Below, piece by piece: positions 2,145 to 64,000 of a stretch of DNA of 64,000 nucleotides. The notes below the pieces were generated by a model. That model had not been told where the DNA came from, ran no database searches, and worked only from the letters and a program-made list of their open reading frames with translations. Position numbers and translations under genes: made by a program. The number at the start of each line of letters is the position of its first letter. The stretch's first letter is position 1. The DNA is taken from contig JASGJH010000001.1 in NCBI GenBank assembly GCA_047601445.1, forward strand, positions 7,360,001 through 7,424,000, written 5' to 3'. Source of the stretch: Myxococcales bacterium (GTDB lineage Bacteria > Myxococcota_A > Polyangia > Polyangiales > DASUME01).

Positions 2145-3218
2145 ATGGTGTGCCTCGCGCTGTGGCTGGCCACTGGCGCCGCCGCGGCCGACGACCGCTA
2201 TTACTACTATGACCCCGACGGCGTCGGAGCTCACGCCTTCTACAACCCATGGAACTTCATCGTGCAAGGGGGCTTGGGGGCTCTCTACGACACGCCGATG
2301 GACTCGTTCGACTGGTCGGGTGGCTTTGCGACCTTGAACAAGTCGCTAGGCAGTCCCCTCGACGCCATCCACGAGTACGGCTGGGGCCGCTTCATCTACC
2401 GCGAGTTCACCCCCCATCCCGGCGCCGGCCAGAACTACGTGCCCAACTGGGTCTGGCACTTCACGGGCGGTGGCATGCGCACCAAGCTCATGGAGGAGTA
2501 CTACCGGCACCTGGGCTTGGACGAATGGCCGGCGCGCATCGCGGGCTGGGCCTCGCTCTATTCGATGCACTATTTGAATGAGGCAGTGCAGGCGGCGCGC
2601 TTCGAGGGCCATCGTCGCACCACCATCGATCCCCTGTCGGACATGTACTTCTTCGACTGGACGGGCGCCCTGATGTTCCAGTTCGATGCAGTGAACCGCT
2701 TCATGAGCCGGCGTCTCCACCAGCGCGAATGGTCCTATCAAGCGCAGTACGACCCGCTCGCGCGCAGGCTGCTCAACAACGGCCAGCTCTACTGGATGCG
2801 CGTCGGGCTCTACGGCCCCGTCAGCTTGAGCTTCTTGACCGGCGAGCAGATCACCAGCCTCAACCTCACCTATAGCTGGGACGACGTGCACCAGATCTCG
2901 GTGGGGGCAGGCCCCAAGTCCAAGGCCTTCATCGCGCGCAACAACGGCGACACGGATGCAAGCGGCATCGTGTGGAGCGCGGGCGTGTACTACTCGGTGA
3001 ACGACAACCCCTTCGTGGTGTTCACCTACGAGCCCAGCGAGCGGCATGGCGGCGAGCGCCATCCGGGGCAAGCCAAGTACATGGTCAACTGCTACCCGGG
3101 CCTTTTGCGGGTGTTCGACCAACCTGCGGGGATGTCGCTTTCGTATCAGCTGGAAGCTTTTTTCGTGGGCTTTGCGATGGGGCCGTTGCCGATGGGGATG
3201 GTGCTCGGAACGAGGTGA
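2145..3218 (+). CDS. Hypothetical exported protein, possibly outer-membrane
   Basis: Signal-peptide-like N-terminus (LALWLATGAAAA-D), aromatic-rich, with a beta-strand-like C-terminal half. Long ORF with host-like codon use. Confidence 0.6.
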   Translation: MVCLALWLATGAAAADDRYYYYDPDGVGAHAFYNPWNFIVQGGLGALYDTPMDSFDWSGGFATLNKSLGSPLDAIHEYGWGRFIYREFTPHPGAGQNYVPNWVWHFTGGGMRTKLMEEYYRHLGLDEWPARIAGWASLYSMHYLNEAVQAARFEGHRRTTIDPLSDMYFFDWTGALMFQFDAVNRFMSRRLHQREWSYQAQYDPLARRLLNNGQLYWMRVGLYGPVSLSFLTGEQITSLNLTYSWDDVHQISVGAGPKSKAFIARNNGDTDASGIVWSAGVYYSVNDNPFVVFTYEPSERHGGERHPGQAKYMVNCYPGLLRVFDQPAGMSLSYQLEAFFVGFAMGPLPMGMVLGTR

Positions 3219-16817: not shown

Positions 16818-16892
16818 AGGCCAGGGAATTCAGCGCTCAAGCGCAGCGTGCGGTGCTTTTCGATGGGGGCTTTCGAGGGGGGATATCACGCC

Positions 16893-19013
16893 ATGAAGAT
16901 TCACATGATTCTTGGTCCTACAGGGGTGGGGAAAACGAACCGGTCCATCTCTTTGGCGCGGCAGAAGAGCGTGCCAGTCATCTCTCTGGATCGATTCCAG
17001 ATCTTCGATGAGCTCGCGACGGGAACCGGGCGACCGACTCCCGAGGAACTCGCAGGAACCGAGCGCATTTTCCTCGCCAGGCGTCGTGTCGCTGAGGGCG
17101 AGTTTCCCGCCGATGAGGCCTATCAGGCTCTCCTCGGATGGGTCGACGCGCTCTCGCATCATCACGAACTCATCCTCGAAGGTGGTTCCATCTTGCTGTG
17201 CTCGACTCTGTTCGAGCAGGGATTCCTGAGCGCGCACCAAGTCGAAATTCAGAATCTGACGATCCGCGATGTCGACTTCCACCGAAACACCGTCAAGAGC
17301 CGCATCCGTGAAATGCTGGTCTCCACCGATGGTCGCCCCTCGATGGTCGAAGAGCTGGCCAGGGTGTGGAACGAGCCAGCGCAGCTCTCCTTCCTGGAGA
17401 CTATCACCGGCTACGACATCATCATCGAGCATTGCCGGCGGCTTCGCATGACGCCGGGCGATGTCGCGGCGCAGCCGGTGGCCGCCGACCTAGTGGATGC
17501 GATCGCCGAGTCACACGTCGACTACTCGCTGCGACAGATCGCGGCCTTCGCGCGACTCTTGAGCGACCATACGTCACGCTGGAAAGTCCAGTACATCTCC
17601 GAATACACCAGGCCCAATGCGAGCGTGGCGCACGAGTCCTCACGCGGGACGGCATCCGTGGAGGAGAGCTCCAAAACGCCCAGTGACAGCCAGTTCGACC
17701 TCTCGTCGCCGGCCAGGCTCGATGACCCCTATTCGCTGTACGCTCGCCTGCGGCGAGAAGCCCCGGTGTTCCACGACGCCGCGCTCGATGCCTGGATCAT
17801 CAGCCGCTATGACGACGTGTGCTCGATCCTGAAGGACCCGGTGCGGTTTTCTTCGATAGGTGTCCTGAAGGTCAAGGCCGAGCCGCCGCCGGAGGTCGCC
17901 GCGGTGCTCGCGCAGGGAATCCCGTACGTGCGTACCCTCATCGACAACGACCCCCCGGGCCACACGCGCTTTCGCAACCTGGTCAACCGAGCTTTCGTTC
18001 CTCAGCGGGTCAACCAGCTCGAACCAAAGATTTACGCGAGCGCCAACGCCCTGATCGACGAGATCGTCGACAGCGGGGAGTGCGATCTCATGGAGCGCTT
18101 TGCGTTCCCGCTGCCCATCTTCGTCATCGCGGAGATCTTGGGCTTGCCGCGCACGGACGTCGGTGATCTCAAACGCTGGTGTGACGACTGGATGGCACTC
18201 CAGTCTGGAACGGCCCCCGTCGAACACCTCGTGCAATGTGCTCACAGCTATCTCGCGATGCAGCAGTACTTCCTCCAGAAGGTCGCGGAGCGTACGCATG
18301 AGCCGCAGGACGATATGTTGAGCGCGCTCATCCAGGCGCGCGTCGACGACGACGCACCCTTGGCTACGGGCGAGCTGGTTCGCTTGCTGATGAGTCTCTT
18401 GGTCGCGGGCCACGAGACCACCACGCATTCCATCGGCAACGTGCTGACGCTCCTGCTGAGGAACCCGACTCAACTCGCTCTGCTTCGCTCGAACCCGAGC
18501 CTCACGGCGCAAGCGGTCGAGGAAGGATTGCGGATGGACGCCCCCGTCCAGAGCCTGTTCCGCCGGGTCACAGAGGACACCACGGTCGGCGGGACCAGCC
18601 TGCCCAAGGGGGCACGGGTCATGATCCTGTACGGATCGGCCAACCGCGACGAGGCTCAGTTCAAGGATCCCGACCGTTTCGATGTTGCGCGCGGCTCAGG
18701 CGGAAAGCATCTCGCGTTCAGCCGCGGCATTCACTTCTGCCTTGGTGCCACGTTGGCCCGCATGGAGATCCGCATTGCGCTCGATCTCTTGATCCAGCGC
18801 TTGCCCGAGCTGCAGTTGGATGAGAGCCTGCCCCTGGAGCGAGTGCCCCACTTCTTTTTGCGCGGCTACAAGCGCCTGCCACTCAAGTGGAATCCGAACC
18901 CGCAGTCCGCAGGCTACCCGAGTGGAGTGTTCGGTAAGTTCGTGAATACGAGCGAGAGTGCTCTCGCTGACTCGTCCACGCTCGAGCCGAAGAAGACGGC
19001 ATCGCATGACTAG
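16893..19013 (+). CDS. Adenylate isopentenyltransferase (Ipt/Tzs-type) fused in frame to a cytochrome P450
   Basis: The N-terminal ~235 aa carry the P-loop ILGPTGVGKT, VISLDRFQ...LATGTGRPTPEELAGTERIFL and LILEGGSI. The C-terminal ~400 aa carry DPPGHTRFR, I-helix VAGHETT, EGLRMDAP (ExxR), DPDRFD and heme motif FSRGIHFCLG. GAGGGGGG RBS. Confidence 0.88.
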   Translation: MKIHMILGPTGVGKTNRSISLARQKSVPVISLDRFQIFDELATGTGRPTPEELAGTERIFLARRRVAEGEFPADEAYQALLGWVDALSHHHELILEGGSILLCSTLFEQGFLSAHQVEIQNLTIRDVDFHRNTVKSRIREMLVSTDGRPSMVEELARVWNEPAQLSFLETITGYDIIIEHCRRLRMTPGDVAAQPVAADLVDAIAESHVDYSLRQIAAFARLLSDHTSRWKVQYISEYTRPNASVAHESSRGTASVEESSKTPSDSQFDLSSPARLDDPYSLYARLRREAPVFHDAALDAWIISRYDDVCSILKDPVRFSSIGVLKVKAEPPPEVAAVLAQGIPYVRTLIDNDPPGHTRFRNLVNRAFVPQRVNQLEPKIYASANALIDEIVDSGECDLMERFAFPLPIFVIAEILGLPRTDVGDLKRWCDDWMALQSGTAPVEHLVQCAHSYLAMQQYFLQKVAERTHEPQDDMLSALIQARVDDDAPLATGELVRLLMSLLVAGHETTTHSIGNVLTLLLRNPTQLALLRSNPSLTAQAVEEGLRMDAPVQSLFRRVTEDTTVGGTSLPKGARVMILYGSANRDEAQFKDPDRFDVARGSGGKHLAFSRGIHFCLGATLARMEIRIALDLLIQRLPELQLDESLPLERVPHFFLRGYKRLPLKWNPNPQSAGYPSGVFGKFVNTSESALADSSTLEPKKTASHD

Positions 19014-40072: not shown

Positions 40073-40331
40073 GCGTAGTACGCCCGCAAACCAGGCGCGA
40101 TCGTAGCGACGGGCGGCGCGGTCGTGAAATCTCAAGGCGAGCACGCATCCTGCCACGCGGCGCTCACCGCTCCTGTCCTGGAATTAGGCCTCACGTTCCT
40201 GTCTATTGACCTCGGTCGCGCCGCTCGGTTCCCGCGCGGGAGCGGCGGCCACTATGGGGCGCGTCTGCGTTGCCTGGGAGGCCAACTGCTCGCCGTGCCG
40301 GCCAACCCTGCTCGGCCGTGCCGAGTGGGCG

Positions 40332-41346
40332 TCAGGTCTCTGCGTCGGGGGTCGAGCGCTCGCGATAGCGGGCCGGGCTGGTTCCCGTCCAGCGTTTGAA
40401 GGCTCTCTGAAAGGTGCTCTGCTGCGCAAAACCCGTTTCGTGCGCGACCTCTTTGAGGGTCCGCAGCGGGTGTTGCAGCAGGTCGCAAGCGAGCTCGATT
40501 CTTGCTGTGCTCCACCAGCTCCGAGTACGAGACCCCTTCTTCGCTCAGGCGTCGTCGCAGGGAACGCGTGCTCATGCCCAGGGCGCGCGCGGCATCCTCC
40601 ATGGCCATCACTTCGGGCAGCTTGCGCTGCACCAGCCGCTTGAGCCGCTCCGCGTAGGTGCTCTGGCCCACCACGCGCTTCAGCACGCGCTCGGCCTGCG
40701 TGGTGAGGAACTCGTGCAGCTCTTCGTTGCGGTGTGCTTGCGGCGAGTCGAGGCCCTCGTGCTGGAACTCCATGAAGGTGTCGGCTTGCTCGAAGCACGC
40801 CCGCCCCTCGAATAGCCGCTCGTATTCGCTCGCATAGCTCGGGCGCCCATGGCTGAAGCCCACGCGCTGCACCAGTGCGCCGGACGCTGCGCCGACCACC
40901 TTCAAGAGGCGCAGCATGGAGACGGCGATCATCTCGCGTCTCATGCGCAGACCCTGCTCGGACGCGGACAGGGGCGTGAACACGAAGCGGCCGTGGTTGC
41001 CCCGCGTCTCGAACTCGACCTCGGGCTTGTCGGCGAGGATGGGTTGAAAGCGCAGGATGGCCTCGATGGCGCTCTGCAGGCTGCGCGCCTGGGCGACCAA
41101 CGGCGGCAACACGTCGTACTGCATCAGCGGCGAGTGCTCGGCCCAGTGCAGCCCCAATGCTTCGTCCCCGGTGAGCTCCAACGCGAGCTCCAGCAAGGCG
41201 TCGAATTCCTGGACCTCGAACCACGCGTAGGGATCGCTCAGTCGACCCGGCGCGAGCCCCGCCCGCTCCAGGAAGGCCTGGGAGCTCACGCCGGAGACGG
41301 TGACCGCTTCGGTGAGCGCCCGTACGTGGATGGCTGAGACCCGCAT
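40332..41346 (-). CDS. AraC-family regulator with N-terminal sensing domain; frameshift near 40499
   Basis: First HTH AARALGMSTRSLRRRLSEEG. The second HTH lies in the shifted frame: IELACDLL...LKEVAHETGFAQQSTFQRAFKRWTGTSPARYR, with its stop at 40332-40334. Confidence 0.85.
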
Positions 41347-41722
41347 GCTCCTTCGCTATCGCTCGCGGGTCGGACCCGGACGAGAGTCGCGCCGCCCGCG
41401 CGGCGTGCATCTTGGGGTGGGGTGTCCGAGGGTGTCAAGGCAGGCCGGTCCGCGCCAGGTGCCGGCACATTCTGGCGCACACGAACGGGCGCGCTCATGC
41501 CCAGCGATCTACGCGAGCGGACCACCATGCGCCGCGCGCCGCGCAGCGCTGCGCATGCCCAGCATTCTGAATCGAAATCTCATGGGCCCAGTGCCCTCCA
41601 TCGCCACGGACGGCTCATCGATCACCTCGCGGGAAGCTGCAGTTTTCGAAGCGCGAATTCACCCGGATCCAACGCCCAAGCGCATTGCTCTGCAGATGGA
41701 CGAAAGCTAGCTTCGCAAGCAC

Positions 41723-43555
41723 TTGTCTTCCTTGTTCGCGCGCTTCGTTTCCTCTCGCGCTGCTCGCTTGCGGCCTTGGCCCAATCGACTCGGGCAGCTC
41801 CGTGTTTTGGGGCATGCGCTATCGGTCCTGCCCTTCAGCGCGCTGCTGCTGATCGCTGCGAGCCTCGCGGGCTGCATCGGGTCCAAGAGCGAGGCGGCCC
41901 ATCGGCTCGACAGTGGTCCTATCGATATCGGCGAAGATGGTTCGCTGCCACTCTCGGACGCGGGCGAGGACGCCGCCACGGTCGACGCAGCACCGCCGGG
42001 CTCCGATGCCGCACACGACGCCGCTCAGCCGGATGCGGCATTCCCCGATGGCGATGCGGGCGACGACGCAGGAGACGCGGCGGTGCCGCGGTCATGCAAT
42101 CGTCACTTGCCGCATGTGCTGGTGCTCTTCGGGGGGGCGCTCGGCCCGAACGATCCGGGCACCAACAATCTGCTCAATCTCCTGAACGAGCAGCGCCTGT
42201 TCTACTCCTCGCGGCCCATCGACGCCGAGGTCGCTTTCCAGAGCGAGGCGACGGGAAACTTCGGCGCCATCGTGATCACGGACTACGAGGCCTACGTGGA
42301 GCTGGAGTCGGCCCACAAGGAGCGCCTCGATGCCTACGCCCGCGCCTGCGACGTGGGGTTGTACTTCCTGCATGTCCCAGCCGGTACGGCGCTTCAGGGG
42401 GGGGACCTCGTGGCAGGATTCGATTCGGTCCTGAGCAACCCACGCGTGGACGCCGATAGCCCCGTGCTGCGCCTCACCAAGGACGGCGGGGCTCTGAGCG
42501 AGACGCTGCCAGGCAAGGGCCGCCCCTTCGTCGTGACCGCGACGCGAGGCTACGCGACCATCGCCTCCGCCACGGCGGGCCCCATGCGCTCGCCCAACAT
42601 CGTCGCCGACGACGGAACCCGCGACGGGGTGCGCAAGATCTTCCACGGTCAGGACTTCACGCGTTACTGGCTGCACGACCTCCTGTTCCTCGATGGCTTG
42701 CAGTGGCTGGCTCCGGTGGAGCTCGGCATCGTGGACGAGCGCTGGTTCGCGGTGGACATCGACGACATCTTCATGCCCGCCTACGACGAGGACCCCAGCA
42801 AACAAATCGTGAAGCTACAGCGCTCCGACGTCGACGCCTTGATCGCCACCCAGCACGCCATCGCTGCCATCACCGGCATGCGCTTTCGCTTTACGCTCGG
42901 CTTCAACAGCGGTTTCTATGAACGCCAGCTCGCGCCCGCCCCCTTCGACGACGTCGACGGCGATCACGCCCTGGTGGAGCACCGCGACGAATTCCACTGG
43001 TTCGATCACCTGCCGGAGCACGAGAGCCCGACCGGTGAGAGCGAGGAAGACCTGGTCGCGTTGATGCAGGAGTCGAAGACCTGGGCCGAAGCGAGCGGCG
43101 TCATCGACTACATGACCAAGTACGCCGTGTCCCCCCGGCACGACGGCGTGGCCAAGCGCTACAAGCCCCTGTTCGATGCCTGGCGCGAAGTCTGGGACCT
43201 TCGCTACACCTCGGCACCGCTCTCGGGCGCGGGCTTCGCGTTCGACGGCGTGCTGGTCTCTCCGCGCCTCGATCTGCGCATCTGGTCGAGTCAGTACTCC
43301 TTCGATCAGGTGAGCCCCGACGATCTCGACGCGCTGGCGGTGGCAGGCGGGCCCGTGTTCCGCGCCATGCTCACGAACCTCACTTCCGTGTTCATGACCC
43401 ACCAGGGCAACTACGCCCGCGACCGCCTGGCTCCACGAGTTCTGCTGGCGGCGCTCCAGAACCTGCATACCTGGACCAATCTGCGCTTCCTCAACGGCAC
43501 GTCCGACCGCGTGGTGGAGCAGTACTTCATGCTCCAGGCCAAGCCCGTTCACTGA
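41723..43555 (+). CDS. Lipoprotein homologous to the N-terminal and N-deacetylase domains of heparan sulfate N-deacetylase/N-sulfotransferase (no sulfotransferase domain)
   Basis: Lipobox LAGC and DAG linker, then motifs colinear with NDST as recalled: YWLHDLLFLDG, RWFAVDIDDIF, EFHWFDHLPEH, YAVSPRHDGV, AWREVW, VFMTHQGNYARDRL, WTNLRF. Start uncertain. Confidence 0.75.
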   Translation: MSSLFARFVSSRAARLRPWPNRLGQLRVLGHALSVLPFSALLLIAASLAGCIGSKSEAAHRLDSGPIDIGEDGSLPLSDAGEDAATVDAAPPGSDAAHDAAQPDAAFPDGDAGDDAGDAAVPRSCNRHLPHVLVLFGGALGPNDPGTNNLLNLLNEQRLFYSSRPIDAEVAFQSEATGNFGAIVITDYEAYVELESAHKERLDAYARACDVGLYFLHVPAGTALQGGDLVAGFDSVLSNPRVDADSPVLRLTKDGGALSETLPGKGRPFVVTATRGYATIASATAGPMRSPNIVADDGTRDGVRKIFHGQDFTRYWLHDLLFLDGLQWLAPVELGIVDERWFAVDIDDIFMPAYDEDPSKQIVKLQRSDVDALIATQHAIAAITGMRFRFTLGFNSGFYERQLAPAPFDDVDGDHALVEHRDEFHWFDHLPEHESPTGESEEDLVALMQESKTWAEASGVIDYMTKYAVSPRHDGVAKRYKPLFDAWREVWDLRYTSAPLSGAGFAFDGVLVSPRLDLRIWSSQYSFDQVSPDDLDALAVAGGPVFRAMLTNLTSVFMTHQGNYARDRLAPRVLLAALQNLHTWTNLRFLNGTSDRVVEQYFMLQAKPVH

Positions 43556-43690
43556 CGGCTCGCGTCGCGAGCACCCACGATGCGGGCTCGCATCGCGAGC
43601 CGGTGGCACTGAGGGATCGTACGGCACCGCCGGGGCCGCCCCTGCGCGCTCGGCTTGACAACAAGGTATACATCGTGTTTCCCATAGGTC

Positions 43691-44599
43691 ATGGCGATCT
43701 CATCCTTGGCGCACAAGAAGGTCTTCATCACGGGCGCGGCCAGCGGTATCGGGCGGGCCACGGCGCGCGCGGCAGCCCGCGAGGGGGCTCAGCTGTTCCT
43801 CACCGATCGTCACCTCGAGCCGTTGAGTGGGCTGGTGAGCGAGCTGCGGCATTCGGGCGCTCAGGTGGCGGAATTCCGGGCCTTCGACATCGCCGATATC
43901 CAGGCCGTTCGGGACTTCGCGGAGGCCATTCACCAGGTCCACGGCAGCATGGACGTGCTGATGAACGTGGCCGGCATCTCCATCTGGGGCAGCGTGGAGC
44001 ACCTGCAGCATCAGGACTGGAAGAGCCTGGTGGACGTCAACTTGATGGGGCCCATCCATGTGATCGAGTGTTTCGTGCCGGAGATGATCCGGGCCGGGCG
44101 GGGCGGGCACCTGGTGAACGTGTCGTCGGCGGCGGGCCTGTTCGGGTTGCCATGGCACGCGGCCTACAGCGCCAGCAAGTTTGGTCTGCGCGGGGTGTCC
44201 GAGGTGCTCCGCTTCGACCTGCGGCGTCATGGTATCGGTGTCAGCTTGGTCTGTCCGGGTGCCGTCGACACGGGGCTCGTGAGCACGCTCCAGGTGCGCG
44301 GTCTCGACACCCAGGGGCCTGCGTTCCAACGCATGCGCCAGCATTTTCAGCGTCACGCCGTGAGCCCAGAGCAGGCAGCCGAGGCCATCCTGCGTGGCAT
44401 CAAGCGCAACCGCTACATGGTCTACACCTCCTTCGATATCCGGATGGGACACTGGTTTCAGCGCAAGTTCTCGCTGCCCTACGAGCTCTTCATGCACGGC
44501 ATGAACTTCGGCTTCCAGCGCTTCGCGGCGGCCTCGTCGTCCTCGGGCAAGCGCGTGCCCAGTCGTCAGGACTCCATGCCCAGGGAGCAACTGCGATGA
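43691..44599 (+). CDS. Short-chain dehydrogenase/reductase (SDR)
   Basis: Motifs ITGAASGIG, NVAG, VNVSS and YSASK (YxxxK). Confidence 0.92.
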   Translation: MAISSLAHKKVFITGAASGIGRATARAAAREGAQLFLTDRHLEPLSGLVSELRHSGAQVAEFRAFDIADIQAVRDFAEAIHQVHGSMDVLMNVAGISIWGSVEHLQHQDWKSLVDVNLMGPIHVIECFVPEMIRAGRGGHLVNVSSAAGLFGLPWHAAYSASKFGLRGVSEVLRFDLRRHGIGVSLVCPGAVDTGLVSTLQVRGLDTQGPAFQRMRQHFQRHAVSPEQAAEAILRGIKRNRYMVYTSFDIRMGHWFQRKFSLPYELFMHGMNFGFQRFAAASSSSGKRVPSRQDSMPREQLR

Positions 44600-45126
44600 G
44601 TCCGCGTCTGCCTCCCGCTGGTCTGGGCGAGCTCGGCGCCGTCAACTGGGTGTTGTGCCGTGTGATCGCCCTGGCCCAGGGCGTGCCGGAGGCGCACCTG
44701 TTCACCACCCTCGGGCGCCAACGTGGGTTGTTCCGTTCGTGGCTGCTGTACTCGGCGCGGCTCATGCCGGGCGGCAGCCTCTCGCGCAAGGAAACCGAGC
44801 TGGTGATCCTGCGCATCGCCCACCTGCGCGACTGCCAGTACGAACGCGATCATCACGTGAAGCTCGGCCGCCGGGTCGGCATCACCGCTGCCTTGCTGCA
44901 AGCCATCGAGGTGGGTCCAAGCAGCGAGGAACTCAACGAGCGTCAGCGCGCGATCCTCGCCGCGGTGGACGACCTGGTGCGCACCAAGAACATCTCGGAC
45001 GCAAACTGGCGCAGCTTGCGCCAACACCTGCAGAGCCCCCAAATCGTGGAATTGTGCCTGTTGGTAGGGCAGTACGAGACGCTCGCCACCACCATCGCCA
45101 CCCTGGGCATCCAGCGGGATTTTTGA
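44596..45126 (+). CDS. Carboxymuconolactone decarboxylase/AhpD-like protein
   Basis: ATGA overlap with the SDR stop; motif ETELVILRIAHLRDCQYERDHH. Confidence 0.85.
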   Translation: MSPRLPPAGLGELGAVNWVLCRVIALAQGVPEAHLFTTLGRQRGLFRSWLLYSARLMPGGSLSRKETELVILRIAHLRDCQYERDHHVKLGRRVGITAALLQAIEVGPSSEELNERQRAILAAVDDLVRTKNISDANWRSLRQHLQSPQIVELCLLVGQYETLATTIATLGIQRDF

Positions 45127-45129
45127 GTC

Positions 45130-45801
45130 ATGCCCGCCGCGACGCGTGAGCCACGCGCGCCGACCAAGCGAGCTTCGACGTCGCCGCAGCCCAAGAAGAA
45201 GGCGGCGCGTCGGCGCAACGCGACCGGCGTGCAACTCGGTGAGGACGAGGTGCGCTCGCGCATCCTGCAGGCAGGCGCCATGGTCTTCGCGCAGAGCGGC
45301 GTGCGGGCGGCCTCGGTGGAGGACATCCTGTTGGTCTCGGGCATCTCGCGCCGCACCTTCTATCGCTTCTACGAGGGCAAGGAAGACGTGATGCTCGCCC
45401 TCTACAACCTGGGTACCGAGGGGTTGCTAGGAGCATGCCGGTTCGCGGTGGCCAGCACCCACGACCCGCTGCTGCGCTTCGAGCGCTGCATCGACGCGCA
45501 CCTCCAGAATGCACGCGGGCTTGCACGACTGATCTTCGTGCTCGGAGGTGAAGCACAGCATCATGAGTCCCCACTGTACGTGCGCCGTCGCGAGGTCCAC
45601 GACCAGCTCGTGCAGCTGCTCGCACACGCTCCCGGGATGCCGGCCCTCGATGAGCTCATGGTACGCGCGATGATCCTGGCCCTCGAGGGGGTGGTCCGCT
45701 TCATGCTCGAGCAAGGGGACGAGGGACGCTCCGTGTCCTCCTCCGAGCTGGCGCGCGCCAAGAAAATGCTGCTGCAACTGTGCAGCGGCGCACTCGCGTG
45801 A
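45130..45801 (+). CDS. TetR/AcrR family regulator
   Basis: HTH segment ILQAGAMVFAQSGVRAASVEDILLVSGISRRTFYRFYEGK. Confidence 0.9.
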   Translation: MPAATREPRAPTKRASTSPQPKKKAARRRNATGVQLGEDEVRSRILQAGAMVFAQSGVRAASVEDILLVSGISRRTFYRFYEGKEDVMLALYNLGTEGLLGACRFAVASTHDPLLRFERCIDAHLQNARGLARLIFVLGGEAQHHESPLYVRRREVHDQLVQLLAHAPGMPALDELMVRAMILALEGVVRFMLEQGDEGRSVSSSELARAKKMLLQLCSGALA

Positions 45802-58785: not shown

Positions 58786-61700
58786 CTACGGCGAGTCCAT
58801 CATACGAGACGTAGTGTCCATTGCAAGGTCGACGTTCGTTGCGCCGCGCCGGCCGCGCCAGACTCCCCAGGCACTGCCGAGCCGATGGAGGACGAGATAG
58901 ACCACGGGCGTCGTGTACAGCGTGAGCACCTGACTCAAGAGGAGCCCACCGACGATGGAGATTCCGAGCGGTCTTCTCAACTCGGCGCCATCGCCCGCGC
59001 CGAGAGCGAGTGGGAGCGCTCCCAGCAAAGCCGCCAACGTCGTCATCAGGATGGGACGAAAGCGCTCGAGGCAAGCCCGACGGATCGACTCCGCGGCGGT
59101 GAGGTGCTCGGTGCGTTCGAGCTGGAGCGCGCAGTCGATCAACATGATGGCGTTCTTCTTGACGATGCCGACGAGCAAGATGAGCCCGATCAACGCGATC
59201 ACCGAGAAGCTCTCGTCCATGAGGCGCAGGGCGAGCAGCGCGCCTACGCCCGCCGAAGGCAGTGTGGAGAGAATGGTCAGCGGATGGAGCAGGCTCTCGT
59301 AGAGCATGCCCAACACCAGGTAGACCGCGACCAGGGCCGACAGAATGAGCCACGGTTGGTTGTCGAGGGACGAGAGGAACGCCTGCATGCTGCCAGCGAA
59401 CGTCCCCCATACGCTGCCTGTCGGACTGGCCTGCTCGAGGGTGGTTTCGATCATCCGCGCTGCGCGTTCGAGCGACACGCCCGGGGCCAAGTTGAAGGAG
59501 AGCGTGGCGGCCGCGAACTGGCCCTGGTGGTTTACCGCGAGCGGAGCGTGCTTTCGGCTCCAGTGGGCCAGGGAATGCAGGGGAACCGGCTGCTCGCCAC
59601 GCGCGGGGAGGTAAATGTTCTTGAGGGCTTCGGGGCCTCGCGCCAACTCGGGTTCGACGGCGAGCACGACGTAGTACTGGTTGAGCGGCTCGTAGATCGT
59701 GGATACGATGCGCTGGCCGAAGGCGTCATTCAGGGTCGCGTCGATGTCCCGCGCCGAGATGCCAAGCTCGGCTGCCCGATCGCGATCCAGCGAAACTTGC
59801 GTCGCTAGGCCGCGGTCCTGGAAGTCGCTCGTCACGTCGGTCAGCTCGGGCAGCTTGGCGAGTAGCCCGCGAAAGCGCGGTGCCAGCGCCTGGAGCGCCG
59901 GCAGGTCGCTCGAAAGGAGTGTGTACTGATACTGCGCCGCCCCCTGGCGTGCTCCGATGTTGACGTCCTGTTGAGCGCTGAGCAGCAGCGCCACTCCGGG
60001 CACCTTCGATAGGCGTGGTCGCAGTCGCTGCACGACCTCCTCCGCCGTGGCTGTGCGCTCGGCCCGGGGGCGCAGCTGTGCGAACATGGAGCCCGTGTTG
60101 AACTGGTTGCCAGCGGCGCCGCCGCCGTACTCGTAAAAGGTGTCCACGTCGGGATCGTTCCCGACGATACGCATCAGGGCGGCCACTTTTTGGCGCATGG
60201 CCGCAAAGCCGATGTTCTGGTCCGCGCGAAAGATGCCCTGGAGGCGGCCCGTGTCCTGCTGCGGAAAGAAGCTCTTGGGGATGGCTTGATAGAGGTGAAC
60301 GCTGAGCCACACGCTGCCCAGCAAGCACGTCAGCATCAGCCGCGGATGTCCGAGCGCCCAACCGAGCGTAAGCGCATAAACCCGCTCGGGAAGCGTGCTG
60401 ACCGCGTCGAGTACACGGTGGACCCAACTCGAGGAGCTCGCCGTCGACGGGGGCCTCAGCAGCTGGGCACACAGCATGGGAGTGACTACCAGGGAAACCA
60501 GCATGGAGAGCAGGACCGCGATGGACAAGGTCACCGCGAACTCGCGAAAGAGCCGACCGACCACGCCATCCATCAGCAAAAGCGGAATGAACACGGCGAC
60601 CAGGGAAACGCTCATGGCGACCACGGTGAAGCCCACGTTGCGCACGGCCCGCAGGGCGGCCGACCGGGCATCGAGCCCGCGTTCCATGTGGTGGACGGCG
60701 TTTTCCAGCACTACGATCGCATCGTCCACCACGAAGCCCGTGGAGATGATCAGCGCCATCAACGACAGGTTGTTGAGCGTGAACCCACACAGGTAAATGA
60801 TCGCGAGGGTGCCGAGCAGCGAAACGGGGATCGCGACGCTGGGAATGATGGTGGCCCGGGCGCTGCGCAAGAACAGGAACGCCACCAGCACTACGAGTCC
60901 AATCGAAAGCAGCAACGTTTCTTCGACCTCCCGCAGGGAGCGCCGGATGGTGGTGCTGCGGTCCACCACGACTTTGACTTCCACGTCGGCGGGCACCAGG
61001 GAGTCCGCCTCGCGAAGGAGGTCCTTCACCGCATCCACCGTCTGCACGATATTGGCGCCGGGCTGGTTGATCACGGCCAGGAGCACGGCGGGCTTGCCGC
61101 CGCTCGAGCCTGCGTTTCGCAACTCCTGCACCGAGTCACGGATCGTGGCGACGTCCGAAAGGCGCACCACCCCCGCCGGCGTCGAGCGCACGATCAGGTC
61201 GCGGTAGTCCTGGGCGCGCGCGAGCTTGCCCCGGACGTGTATCAGATAGCGCTCCTCCTTCGATTCGATGAAGCCCTTGGGGAGGTCCGCGGTGGCCGTG
61301 GAGAGGGCCGTCCGCAGCTGCTCCAGCGAGAGACCACGCTGGGTGAGCACCTGGGGGTTTACCTCGATGCGCACCGAACGGATCGAGCTGCCATTGACCT
61401 GGACCTGTCCCACGCCGGCAACCTGCGCGATGCGCTGGCCGAGGTTGGTGAATGCCACGTCATAGAGCTGGTCTTGGGTGCGGGTGGGGGAGGTGAGCGC
61501 GATGGCCAGCACCGGCCCCGAGGCCGAGTTGGCCTTGCGATAGATGGGAGGCGAGGGCAAGTTGGGCGGTAAGAGCGCGCTCGCGGCGCTGATCGCGGAC
61601 TGCACGTCGCGCGCCGCGCTGTCCACGTCGCGGGCGAGATCGAACTGCAAGCTGACGCGCGTGGAGCCCTGCGAGCTGGTCGAGGTCATCTCGGTGACTC

Positions 61701-61926
61701 CGGCGATGCGACCGAGCACGCGCTCGAGCGGCGTCGCGACGGTGGCCGCCATGGTCTCTGGACTCGCTCCAGGGAGTTGCGCCGACACGTTGATGACCGG
61801 CATGTCGACCTGAGGCAAGGAGGCAACCGGCAGCAGAAAGAAGGCCACCGCCCCCGGCAAGGTCAAGGCCAGCGCGAAGAGGCATGTGCCCACCGGTCGT
61901 CGGATGAACAGCTCGAACGCCTTCAC
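58786..61926 (-). CDS. mdtC: RND efflux permease, MdtC-like
   Basis: 1046 aa with motifs FIRRPV, LPQVD.P.I, GFVVDDAIVVLEN, GIVKKNAIM and RFRPILMTT. Confidence 0.88.
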   Translation of the reverse strand: MKAFELFIRRPVGTCLFALALTLPGAVAFFLLPVASLPQVDMPVINVSAQLPGASPETMAATVATPLERVLGRIAGVTEMTSTSSQGSTRVSLQFDLARDVDSAARDVQSAISAASALLPPNLPSPPIYRKANSASGPVLAIALTSPTRTQDQLYDVAFTNLGQRIAQVAGVGQVQVNGSSIRSVRIEVNPQVLTQRGLSLEQLRTALSTATADLPKGFIESKEERYLIHVRGKLARAQDYRDLIVRSTPAGVVRLSDVATIRDSVQELRNAGSSGGKPAVLLAVINQPGANIVQTVDAVKDLLREADSLVPADVEVKVVVDRSTTIRRSLREVEETLLLSIGLVVLVAFLFLRSARATIIPSVAIPVSLLGTLAIIYLCGFTLNNLSLMALIISTGFVVDDAIVVLENAVHHMERGLDARSAALRAVRNVGFTVVAMSVSLVAVFIPLLLMDGVVGRLFREFAVTLSIAVLLSMLVSLVVTPMLCAQLLRPPSTASSSSWVHRVLDAVSTLPERVYALTLGWALGHPRLMLTCLLGSVWLSVHLYQAIPKSFFPQQDTGRLQGIFRADQNIGFAAMRQKVAALMRIVGNDPDVDTFYEYGGGAAGNQFNTGSMFAQLRPRAERTATAEEVVQRLRPRLSKVPGVALLLSAQQDVNIGARQGAAQYQYTLLSSDLPALQALAPRFRGLLAKLPELTDVTSDFQDRGLATQVSLDRDRAAELGISARDIDATLNDAFGQRIVSTIYEPLNQYYVVLAVEPELARGPEALKNIYLPARGEQPVPLHSLAHWSRKHAPLAVNHQGQFAAATLSFNLAPGVSLERAARMIETTLEQASPTGSVWGTFAGSMQAFLSSLDNQPWLILSALVAVYLVLGMLYESLLHPLTILSTLPSAGVGALLALRLMDESFSVIALIGLILLVGIVKKNAIMLIDCALQLERTEHLTAAESIRRACLERFRPILMTTLAALLGALPLALGAGDGAELRRPLGISIVGGLLLSQVLTLYTTPVVYLVLHRLGSAWGVWRGRRGATNVDLAMDTTSRMMDSP

Positions 61927-64000
61927 GGACGCGCCTCGTCGGCCACCAAGGCGACTGGTGCCGCAGGCGCGTCGGTGCGGCGTCCGTGCAATCCGGCGAA
62001 GGCCAGGTACATCACGGGCGTGGTGAAGAGCGTGAGCACTTGGCTCAACATCAGGCCGCCGACCAGGGTGATGCCGAGTGGTTTGCGCAGCTCGGAGCCC
62101 GCGCCATCGCCCACGATCAGCGGAACCGCGCTCAGCAGGGCCGCCAGGGTGGTCATCAAGATGGGGCGGAACCGCAGCAGGCAGGCCTCGTAGATCGCTT
62201 GCGCGGGTTCCATTCCGCGCGTGCGCTCGGCTTCGAGCGCGAAGTCGATGATCATGATGGCGTTCTTCTGGACGATGCCGATCAAGAGCACGATGCCGAT
62301 GATGGCGATGACGCTCAGCTCATGTCCGCTCCAGCCGAGGGCGAGCAAGGCACCCACGCCGGCCGACGGCAAGGTGGAGAGAATGGTGAGCGGATGGACG
62401 AAGCTCTCATAGAGGATGCCGAGCACGATGTACATGGTGATGAGGGAGGCCAGCACCAGGAACAGCTCGTTTGATAGGGCCGAGCGGAAGGCCAGGGCAG
62501 CCCCGCGAAAGCGCGTCTGAACACCCGCGCCCAGGTCGAGGGCCGCGCGCTCGTTCTCGATGCGCTTCTCCGCTTCGCCCAGGGAGCTGCCAGCCGCGAC
62601 GTTGAAAGAGATGGTGGCGGCCGGCGCCTGCTTCTCACGATGCAGCACCAGGGCGGTGCTCTCCTGACGCACGTGGACCAGGCTCGAAAGCGGTACCGTT
62701 TGACCGTTCGCGGCCGTCACGTGAAGCTGGTCGAGTACCGCCAACCCGCTGGCCGAGCGCTGAGCTTCGAGCACCACCCGATACTGACTCGTCTGCGTGA
62801 ACACCGTGGAGACGAAGCGCTGTCCGAAGGCGCTGTACAGCAGATCATCGATGTTCGCCATGCTGATGCCCAGGCGGGCCGCCCTGTCGCGGTCGACCTC
62901 CAACGAAGCCGACAGGCCGCTGTGTCCAAACGTGGTCGACACGTCCTCGAGCTCGGGAAGCCGAGCCAGACGTTGTGCAAGTAGCGGCACGGCGCGTTCG
63001 AGCAGGTGCTCGTCCGAGCTCTCCACCAGATACTGGTACTCAGCCCGGGTCACGCGGTCTTCGACCGTGAGGTCCTGTACCGGCAGGAAATACGTCTTAA
63101 TCTCGGGGAGCTCGCGTAGCAGGTCTTTCCAACGGCGCGCGAGCTGGGCACTGCGCACGGAGCGCCCCTCACGACTCGGCTTCAGGGTAATCAATAGGCG
63201 ACCGCTGTTCAGCGTCGGATTCACGCCGTCGATTCCGAGCACGGACGTCACGCTTTGAACGGCCGGGTCGCTCGAGATGAAGCTGACGACCTGCGCCTGA
63301 AGCGCGGTCATCTTCGCGAAGGAGACCGTCGGTGGCGCTTCGGTAACGACTTGAATTACCCCGGTGTCCTGCGTCGGGAAGAACCCCTTGGGGATCCAAG
63401 CGACCAGCAGCACTGTCGCGGCCAATGTGGAAATGGCCGCCAAGAGCGCCACGTTTCGGTGCTTCAGAACCCAACTGAGTCCGTGTCCGTAGGCGCTCAC
63501 GATCTTGTCGAGCGCTCGCTCGACGCCAACCGCGTTCGGCAGGTGGGGGCGCAGCAGGCGCGCGCAGAGCATGGGCGTGAAGGTGAGCGAGACCACGGCG
63601 GAGATCACGATGGCGATCACCAACGTCACGGCAAACTCGCGGAACAGGCGCCCCACCACGTCAGCCATGAACAGCAGTGGGATCAACACGGCGCACAGGG
63701 AGCAGGTGAGTGAGACGATGGTGAAGCCGATCTCCTTGGAGCCGATCAGGGCGGCCTCGAAGGGACGCTCGCCGCGCTCCACGTGGCGGGCGACGTTCTC
63801 GATCATCACGATGGCGTCGTCGACCACGAAGCCGGTCCCGATAGTCAGGGCCATCAAGGTCAGGTTGTTGATGCTGAAACCCAGCAGGTGCATCACGCCG
63901 AAGGATCCGACCAGGGACAGCGGGACGGCCAAGCTCGGGATCAACGTGGCCGCGAAATTGCGCAAGAAGAGGAAGATCACCAGCACCACCAGGACGATGG
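61923..64000 (-). CDS. mdtB: RND efflux permease, MdtB-like (N-terminus beyond window)
   Basis: Motifs GFVVDDAIVMIEN, KGFFPTQDTG and LRFRPILMTT. Its stop overlaps the GTG start of the next RND gene. Confidence 0.85.
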   Translation of the reverse strand, partial: IVLVVLVIFLFLRNFAATLIPSLAVPLSLVGSFGVMHLLGFSINNLTLMALTIGTGFVVDDAIVMIENVARHVERGERPFEAALIGSKEIGFTIVSLTCSLCAVLIPLLFMADVVGRLFREFAVTLVIAIVISAVVSLTFTPMLCARLLRPHLPNAVGVERALDKIVSAYGHGLSWVLKHRNVALLAAISTLAATVLLVAWIPKGFFPTQDTGVIQVVTEAPPTVSFAKMTALQAQVVSFISSDPAVQSVTSVLGIDGVNPTLNSGRLLITLKPSREGRSVRSAQLARRWKDLLRELPEIKTYFLPVQDLTVEDRVTRAEYQYLVESSDEHLLERAVPLLAQRLARLPELEDVSTTFGHSGLSASLEVDRDRAARLGISMANIDDLLYSAFGQRFVSTVFTQTSQYRVVLEAQRSASGLAVLDQLHVTAANGQTVPLSSLVHVRQESTALVLHREKQAPAATISFNVAAGSSLGEAEKRIENERAALDLGAGVQTRFRGAALAFRSALSNELFLVLASLITMYIVLGILYESFVHPLTILSTLPSAGVGALLALGWSGHELSVIAIIGIVLLIGIVQKNAIMIIDFALEAERTRGMEPAQAIYEACLLRFRPILMTTLAALLSAVPLIVGDGAGSELRKPLGITLVGGLMLSQVLTLFTTPVMYLAFAGLHGRRTDAPAAPVALVADEARP

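Follow-up and report, generated by a model that had tools for sequence, protein, structure and literature searches.

NDST is regarded as a Golgi enzyme of animals. Heparan sulfate is made throughout the metazoan lineage, and in the cryo-EM study of NDST1 the deacetylase domain extends to C601, the triad D320, H389 and H393 binds the metal, D319 probably acts as base and H529 as acid, and alanine substitution of any of these five residues abolishes turnover (PMC10864358). A second described enzyme is Agd3 of Aspergillus fumigatus (CE18 and CBM87; PDB 6NWZ); the report on Agd3 deals, in its main text, with bacterial homologues of Agd3 only, and the terms 'NDST' and 'heparan' are absent from that text (PMC7229062). 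The available text of a 2026 engineering study lists animal NDST deacetylase domains, CE4 enzymes and Agd3 as screened, and no bacterial NDST-type protein among them (PMC13353177). No bacterial NDST-type enzyme was found described in open-access papers and bioRxiv. In this study a 64,000-nucleotide stretch of a Myxococcales bacterium genome (contig JASGJH010000001.1, positions 7,360,001 to 7,424,000; hereafter the window) was analysed, in which a gene at 41723..43555 (+) encodes a predicted lipoprotein of 610 amino acids that is an NDST-type N-deacetylase by family, without a sulfotransferase domain.

Domain architecture and relationship to NDST1

The open frame at 41723-43555 (+) begins with TTG. 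Because its GC content (0.663, compared with 0.662 across the window) and its GC3 of 0.85 match the surroundings, it is coding and compositionally at home in its host. The gene is present as a single copy in the genome, which consists of one 9.5-Mb contig. MYXO-CTERM gave four matches in this genome and none in 14 controls, a hint of Myxococcota.

Only two Pfam families matched the protein at E ≤ 1, HSNSD_N (PF25119; residues 149-329, 59.7 bits, cut-off 27.4) and HSNSD-CE (PF12062; residues 339-498, 88.6 bits, cut-off 25), and they occur in the same order as in NDST. A phmmer search of the PDB returned, at E ≤ 1, four distinct sequences, all of them human NDST1 (best E 1.8e-43), with query residues 173-604 aligned in one collinear stretch. 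Both analyses agree with the initial annotation, which had been made from the letters of the DNA and had described a lipoprotein colinear with the animal NDST deacetylase. All seven motif pairs that it quoted were found in the printed NDST1 alignment, namely GNFGAIVITDYEAYVEL/GRFALIIYENILKYVNL, VFMTHQGNYARDRL/IFMTHLSNYGNDRL, the DGV..WLHDLLFLDG pair, RWFAVDIDDIF/RYILVDIDDIF, EFHWFDHLPEH/EFWWFPHMWSH, YAVSPRHDGV/YAVAPHHSGV and WTNLRF/WTNLRL. Identity to NDST1 and other animal proteins was 25-30%, and identity to Agd3 was 16-18%.

The best matches were thus to the NDST families and not to generic CE4 or Agd3 proteins. The CE4 NodB profile (Polysacc_deac_1, PF01522) did not match the protein, and neither Agd3_CE (PF25115) nor CBM87_Agd3 (PF25116) matched it at E ≤ 1. 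At E ≤ 0.001, Agd3_CE had no match anywhere in the genome but did match a control genome, Deinococcus radiodurans; Agd3_C (PF25117) matched nothing anywhere, controls included. No NCBIfam family matches the protein. Of all families, the solved NDST1 gave the best superposition with the predicted two-domain fold, and a structure search of the ESM Atlas placed NDST clusters at approximately 3150-3180 versus approximately 1280 for Agd3-type clusters. In a feature search of the same atlas, bacterial Agd3-type clusters ranked first, at 0.95. We conclude that the protein belongs to the NDST-type deacetylase module family; by profile it appears to fall outside Agd3-type CE18, yet within the same superfamily.

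Neither Sulfotransfer_1 nor Sulfotransfer_3 was matched in the protein at E ≤ 1 by the Pfam analysis. The predicted model aligned to NDST1 from residue 81, and its C-terminal end corresponded approximately to NDST1 residue 577, near the C601 limit of the NDST1 deacetylase domain, so that the proposed termination close to the start of the NDST sulfotransferase domain was also borne out. Because there is no sulfotransferase domain, the protein is not a bifunctional NDST (EC 3.5.1.- / 2.8.2.8).

The N terminus (41723..41875, +) has the pattern of a signal peptide, with a basic n-region and a hydrophobic core. The core is a predicted helix of residues 25-49, and after it stands a lipobox, L48-A49-G50-C51 (nt 41864-41875), which fits the consensus [LVI][ASTVI][GAS]C and accords with the proposed lipoprotein nature. 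Cys51 is the predicted lipidated residue and one of three cysteines in the precursor; a cysteine in a lipobox-like context recurs in most of 16 aligned relatives. The following 74 residues (52-125; 41876..42097, +) are rich in Ala, Asp, Gly and Pro (A17, D14, G9), have a net charge of -14 and are predicted to be disordered, with pLDDT below 50 for residues 50-119, and would form a flexible tether. In contrast, NDST1 carries a type II Golgi membrane anchor in place of the lipoprotein signal and acidic tether.

The remainder of the predicted model (mean pLDDT 84.5, pTM 0.78, most blocks above 90) was confidently folded in two domains. Residues 126-332 (42098..42718, +; HSNSD_N, E 3.9e-16) form an alpha/beta domain that is the counterpart of the NDST1 N-terminal domain and of the Agd3 CBM87 domain, and residues 337-608 (42731..43546, +) form the deacetylase barrel. 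The chain ends two residues past the barrel, at residue 610, whereas Agd3 adds a C-terminal domain.

The metal-binding and catalytic Asp and His residues, which the initial annotation had expected to be kept, were all five recovered in the NDST1 alignment. D347 and D348 of the DIDD motif (42761..42766, +) correspond to D319 and D320 of NDST1, the proposed base and a metal ligand; H429 and H433 of the HLPEH motif (43007..43021, +) correspond to the metal ligands H389 and H393; and H560 of the MTHQ motif (43400..43402, +) corresponds to H529, the proposed general acid. NDST1 numbering was offset from the full-length 882-residue chain 8cd0_A, and the codons were checked in the DNA. R515 (43265..43267, +) is aligned to the arginine of the NDST1 'LPR' segment and may correspond to the motif-3 arginine of CE4 enzymes. 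These six residues were invariant in 16 of 16 bacterial-type relatives with 28-47% identity to this protein, which indicates selection on the active site.

Proposed activity, genomic context and substrate

The combined evidence makes it probable that the gene product is an exported, metal-dependent polysaccharide de-N-acetylase lipoprotein. The homology, the fold, the conserved residues, the missing sulfotransferase domain and the lipobox are shown directly, and we infer the catalytic activity, cellular location and substrate; as for the surface anchoring suggested initially, the lipoprotein signal is present and the compartment is a presumed one. The precursor would be exported by the Sec system, cleaved by signal peptidase II and lipidated at Cys51, and the acidic tether of about 74 residues would keep the two-domain module off the membrane. 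The N-terminal alpha/beta domain would lengthen the sugar-binding cleft ahead of the (beta/alpha)-barrel. Catalysis may proceed as in NDST1 and Agd3, with a divalent metal on D348, H429 and H433 activating a water molecule, which, deprotonated by D347, would attack the N-acetyl carbonyl of GlcNAc or GalNAc inside a polysaccharide chain; H560 would protonate the leaving amine and acetate would be released.

Such a protein likely shares its role, partial de-N-acetylation of a HexNAc polymer in the periplasm or at the surface, with PgaB/IcaB (CE4) and with PelA deacetylase domains. PgaB is likewise a lipoprotein. The NDST-type proteins would then be a third exopolysaccharide de-N-acetylase family beside CE4 and Agd3-type CE18.

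Comparison of gene neighbourhoods provided a further indication of substrate. On a 249-kb contig (L017), the orthologue is the last gene in a same-strand run that encodes a response regulator, a HEAT protein, a family 2 glycosyltransferase (GT2), two unknown proteins, a TPR protein with a weak YaiO-barrel match, and a 765-residue unknown protein; a GH123-like gene lies downstream of the orthologue. The best NCBIfam match of the GT2 was PgaC/IcaA, at 128.7 bits against an equivalog cut-off of 422. In a different organism (L015, 46% GC), a 55%-identical copy of the 765-residue gene is also directly upstream of the orthologue (L017:7620-9917; L015:2-1282). The 765-residue protein of L017 had no Pfam match and no PDB sequence match; its family is widespread and uncharacterised, and its look-alikes in the ESM Atlas have about 700 residues, are often fused to TPR repeats and bear a faint likeness to glycoside hydrolases and CBM9. 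With its PgaC-like GT2 and TPR protein, the L017 operon is like synthase-dependent biofilm polysaccharide systems, which the L017/L015 arrangement as a whole seems to resemble. Published bacterial Agd3 homologues likewise lie within exopolysaccharide operons (PMC7229062).

The surface charge of the protein was also considered. The catalytic module (residues 126-610) has a net charge of -24, and the deacetylase domain by itself -17. Bacterial NDST-type deacetylase domains had a median pI of 4.9 and a net charge of -16.5 (n=24), bacterial Agd3-type domains a median pI of 5.6 (n=4), and animal-type domains a median pI of 7.4 and a net charge of 0 (n=35). A neutral-to-cationic HexNAc polymer would therefore fit the acidic barrel better than polyanionic heparosan. 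Our tentative first choice of substrate is an exopolysaccharide of the organism itself that contains HexNAc.

Several observations weigh against this reading. No polysaccharide synthesis or export gene was found within approximately 10 kb on either side of the gene, and a search of the genome, for which there was no positive control, did not recover the 765-residue protein that accompanies the orthologue in L017 and L015. Just one synthase in the genome is strongly PgaC-like; encoded 6.8 Mb from the gene, it is a GH18-CE4-GT2 fusion with a CE4 deacetylase of its own. Neighbourhoods of five other relatives (L014, L016, L018, L019 and L020) shared nothing consistent. A further metagenome contig (L021) gave an equal-scoring match with 40% identity over the same query range and is not counted separately from L017; the operon evidence is thus limited to two organisms. 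The charge argument is crude. The start codon is also uncertain, since TTG occurs at codons 1, 4, 16 and 29, none with a clear ribosome-binding site, although the lipobox is kept from every start.

The gene stands alone here and the neighbours of other relatives are unrelated; a serious alternative is therefore an inducible enzyme that acts on foreign or environmental HexNAc polymers. We consider this alternative somewhat less probable than an endogenous exopolysaccharide. The candidate regulator would be the AraC-family gene 376 bp upstream, which is divergently transcribed (40252..41346, -; Pfam Arabinose_bd, 1e-31) and whose best NCBIfam match, QhpR-like, scored 100.9 bits, below the cut-off of 250; its regulation of the deacetylase gene is suggested by position only. 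In a promoter and terminator scan of 41200-43900, no promoter-like sites were found, and the two terminator-like sites inside the gene were no more than in shuffled sequences.

It is also conceivable, though unlikely, that the protein is a true functional counterpart of NDST that de-N-acetylates a heparosan-like GlcA-GlcNAc polymer, be it a capsule of its own or heparosan of animal or bacterial source that it comes upon. Among characterised enzymes, NDST1 is its nearest match in sequence, profile and structure, and the predicted model has the same two-domain cleft architecture. Identity to NDST1, however, is only 25-30%, and the net charge of -24 over residues 126-610 fits an anionic polymer poorly, so that the acidic surface argues weakly against heparosan, which is probably not the substrate. 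The genome contains only three Sulfotransfer_1 matches, weak (23-33 bits) and far from the gene, and the L017 synthase is a PgaC-like GT2 and not heparosan-synthase-like. A search for GT64 (EXT/KfiA-type) found no match in the genome and none in the controls either, and is hence uninformative. The remaining probability falls to other substrates.

Heparin biomanufacture is reportedly limited by the expression of NDST in E. coli (PMC13353177), and bacterial, single-function, disulfide-poor relatives could be tried at this step once their substrate range has been established. The use of this protein in heparosan engineering, which had been proposed at first, is doubtful because its catalytic module is strongly acidic while animal NDST domains are near neutral.

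A catalytically dead, carbohydrate-binding lipoprotein is still less probable than a heparosan deacetylase. Pseudo-enzymes with the CE4 fold exist, and BA3943 entries were among the structural matches, but this protein has all five essential residues as well as R515, and these are invariant across the 16 divergent relatives.

Relatives, phylogeny and origin

The gene is rare. From 5.8 billion proteins, a word-indexed search recovered 17 sequences, which were the protein itself, seven metagenomic proteins (451-614 residues, 33-47% identity) and nine vertebrate NDST2 sequences. An exhaustive search of 1.84 billion representatives gave 316 matches at E ≤ 0.001 and 39 at E ≤ 1e-30, and a Pfam scan covered 58 of the 150 matches listed from it. 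Two classes were distinguished among these 58. Eleven, of the bacterial type, have 457-651 residues, lack a sulfotransferase domain and score 64-111 bits with HSNSD-CE. The HSNSD-CE scores of the remaining 47 were 133-372 bits; 27 of these, each scoring at least 194 bits with HSNSD-CE, also matched Sulfotransfer_1, and the 20 without it look like fragments or shortened gene models. Most bacterial-type proteins start with a signal peptide and a cysteine in a lipobox-like context. In a cluster look-up, all ten bacterial-type proteins queried were singletons, three of them labelled 'hypothetical protein' and none informatively named.

Genome scans gave the same impression of rarity. A motif-based scan of 185,579 species genomes, which mostly misses the barrel-only class described below, confirmed five loci in four metagenome-assembled genomes (MAGs), and a scan of JGI metagenomes found 16 loci, comprising four good bacterial-type loci, three partial ones and nine short exon-like ones. 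A comparison of the protein with 200 further genomes from its order revealed no true relative. Twelve matches were rejected; 11 of these covered only the low-complexity linker (residues 9-129; E 1.6e-5 to 7.9e-4), and the twelfth (G187) scored 20.8 bits over residues 250-383 and contained an in-frame TGA. No true relative was counted among 400 other genomes of the phylum, in which the HSNSD-CE profile matched six weakly (21.8-39.3 bits, versus 91.4 here), each of them belonging to the same family (f36). In G224, G287, G391 and G395, Agd3_CE matched at the same places, and these four were read as Agd3-type; the other two (G468 and G514), neither among the Agd3_CE matches, are assumed to be Agd3-type as well.

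A class of shorter lipoproteins of approximately 267-304 residues (P0040, P0051, P0064, P0070, P0079 and P0100) lacks the N-terminal domain, and all six match HSNSD-CE above the cut-off. The same barrel-only architecture was seen at two further loci (L024:498-1445 and L025:1440-2165), so that the class spans approximately 267-315 residues. Two contigs of one MAG (L016 and L018) carry two diverged NDST-type paralogues, and the copy on L018 lies approximately 2 kb from an IS91-like transposase fragment.

A profile built from 16 bacterial NDST-type proteins detected Agd3-type proteins with E values of 1e-10 to 2e-18, and these proteins could therefore be used as an outgroup. Agd3_CE was found in six of 301 phylum genomes; one Agd3-type locus of the same phylum (L047) matched Agd3_CE and CBM87, with an HSNSD-CE score of only 20.3 bits, below the cut-off. 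In the alignments, some of the 'animal' rows bear organism names and the others were assigned by their Pfam pattern.

The first data set comprised the barrel only (69 rows by 292 columns), with 24 two-domain bacterial, six barrel-only bacterial, 35 animal-type and four Agd3-type sequences. It was drawn from 76 sequences of near-full coverage, after removal of a duplicate of the protein itself (P0002) and of ten vertebrate sequences (P0010, P0012-P0018, P0046 and P0105) that are isoforms or gene models with internal indels. In the quick tree, the bacterial clade (SH-aLRT 95) was sister to the animal clade (88). In the careful tree, the bacterial clade was recovered at 91/100, with the barrel-only class as a 100/99 clade within it, and the root fell inside the animals with 19-32% bootstrap, the bootstrap not having settled. 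Animals formed one clade in 63% of the bootstrap trees, and in the AU test the tree that keeps the animals together was slightly better (lnL +2.35, p-AU 0.54).

Because the barrel-only root was weakly supported and the AU test slightly favoured animals together, the tree of both domains was preferred. This data set had 48 rows and 530 columns (20 bacterial, 25 animal-type and three Agd3-type sequences), with fragments and the barrel-only class omitted, and its quick and careful trees agreed. In the careful tree, the Agd3-type proteins were split off by a long branch (100/100), and the bacterial clade (97/97) was sister to the all-animal clade (91/92) and not nested within it. The first-branching animal group (83/90) contained sponge sequences from Oscarella (P0067) and Sycon (P0031 and P0078) and one unnamed sequence (P0048). 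The rooted tree therefore sets the bacterial clade beside animal NDSTs and apart from bacterial Agd3-type proteins, the comparison for which the initial annotation had called.

Since the bacterial clade stands outside the all-animal clade, we conclude that the bacterial proteins are unlikely to be a recent capture from an animal, and that the bacterial and animal lineages parted no later than the base of the sampled animals. Although the strong matches are all animal NDSTs apart from a handful of metagenomic proteins, and 200 further genomes of the order yielded no true relative, it is very improbable that the gene moved recently from an animal into a bacterium or that animal DNA was mis-assembled into this bacterial genome, given that the gene lies within a single 9.5-Mb contig, has the GC content (0.663) and GC3 (0.85) of surrounding genes, encodes a bacterial lipobox without introns, shows 40-47% identity to other bacterial-type proteins versus 25-30% to animal ones, and belongs to the one clade of all 20 bacterial proteins (97/97), outside that of all 25 animal-type sequences (91/92), among which the sponge group splits off first.

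A bacterial origin of the module is favoured on parsimony alone, since the topology (bacterial Agd3-type, (bacterial NDST-type, animal NDST)) is explained by a single bacterium-to-animal transfer. We give even chances to the proposal that the lineage of this clade donated the N-terminal and deacetylase module to the animal stem, where it was later fused to a sulfotransferase. A reverse transfer, from a stem animal to bacteria, is possible. With the bacterial sister clade as an outgroup for heparan sulfate N-deacetylation, the origin of the module becomes testable, as horizontal transfer with later fusion versus invention within animals. If the donation did occur, the first committed step of animal heparan sulfate modification would have its origin in the tailoring of bacterial exopolysaccharides.

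Other features of the window and genome

Downstream of the deacetylase gene are a short-chain dehydrogenase/reductase (SDR) gene, a CMD-family region and a TetR regulator. The block from the SDR to the TetR gene is kept in three genomes of the same genus, without an adjoining deacetylase or AraC gene. An open reading frame at 43603-45126 (507 amino acids) overlaps the real SDR gene (43691-44599) in another frame, and its CMD-family Pfam match is confined to residues 376-454, in the final third. No Pfam family matched the alternative frame 44655-45149; the tblastn matches that this frame gave in genomes of the same genus probably reflect conservation of the DNA. The limits of the CMD gene are provisional.

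The GH18-CE4-GT2 fusion mentioned above (G000:C1:582096-585515; L046:6097-9516) has 1139 residues and combines a GH18-like domain, a CE4 polysaccharide deacetylase and a PgaC-like GT2; judging from these domains, it would be a self-contained HexNAc-polymer synthase and modifier.

Elsewhere in the window, a 721-residue open reading frame at 16848-19013 (+) combines an isopentenyl transferase (IPT, 3.6e-57) with a cytochrome P450 (8.5e-32). GC content in the window is lowest around it (0.615-0.629 at 14-20 kb), and it could represent a fusion for cytokinin-type biosynthesis located on an island. At 58786-63989 (-) there are two tandem genes for AcrB/AcrD/AcrF-type RND transporters, the second of which runs toward the window end.

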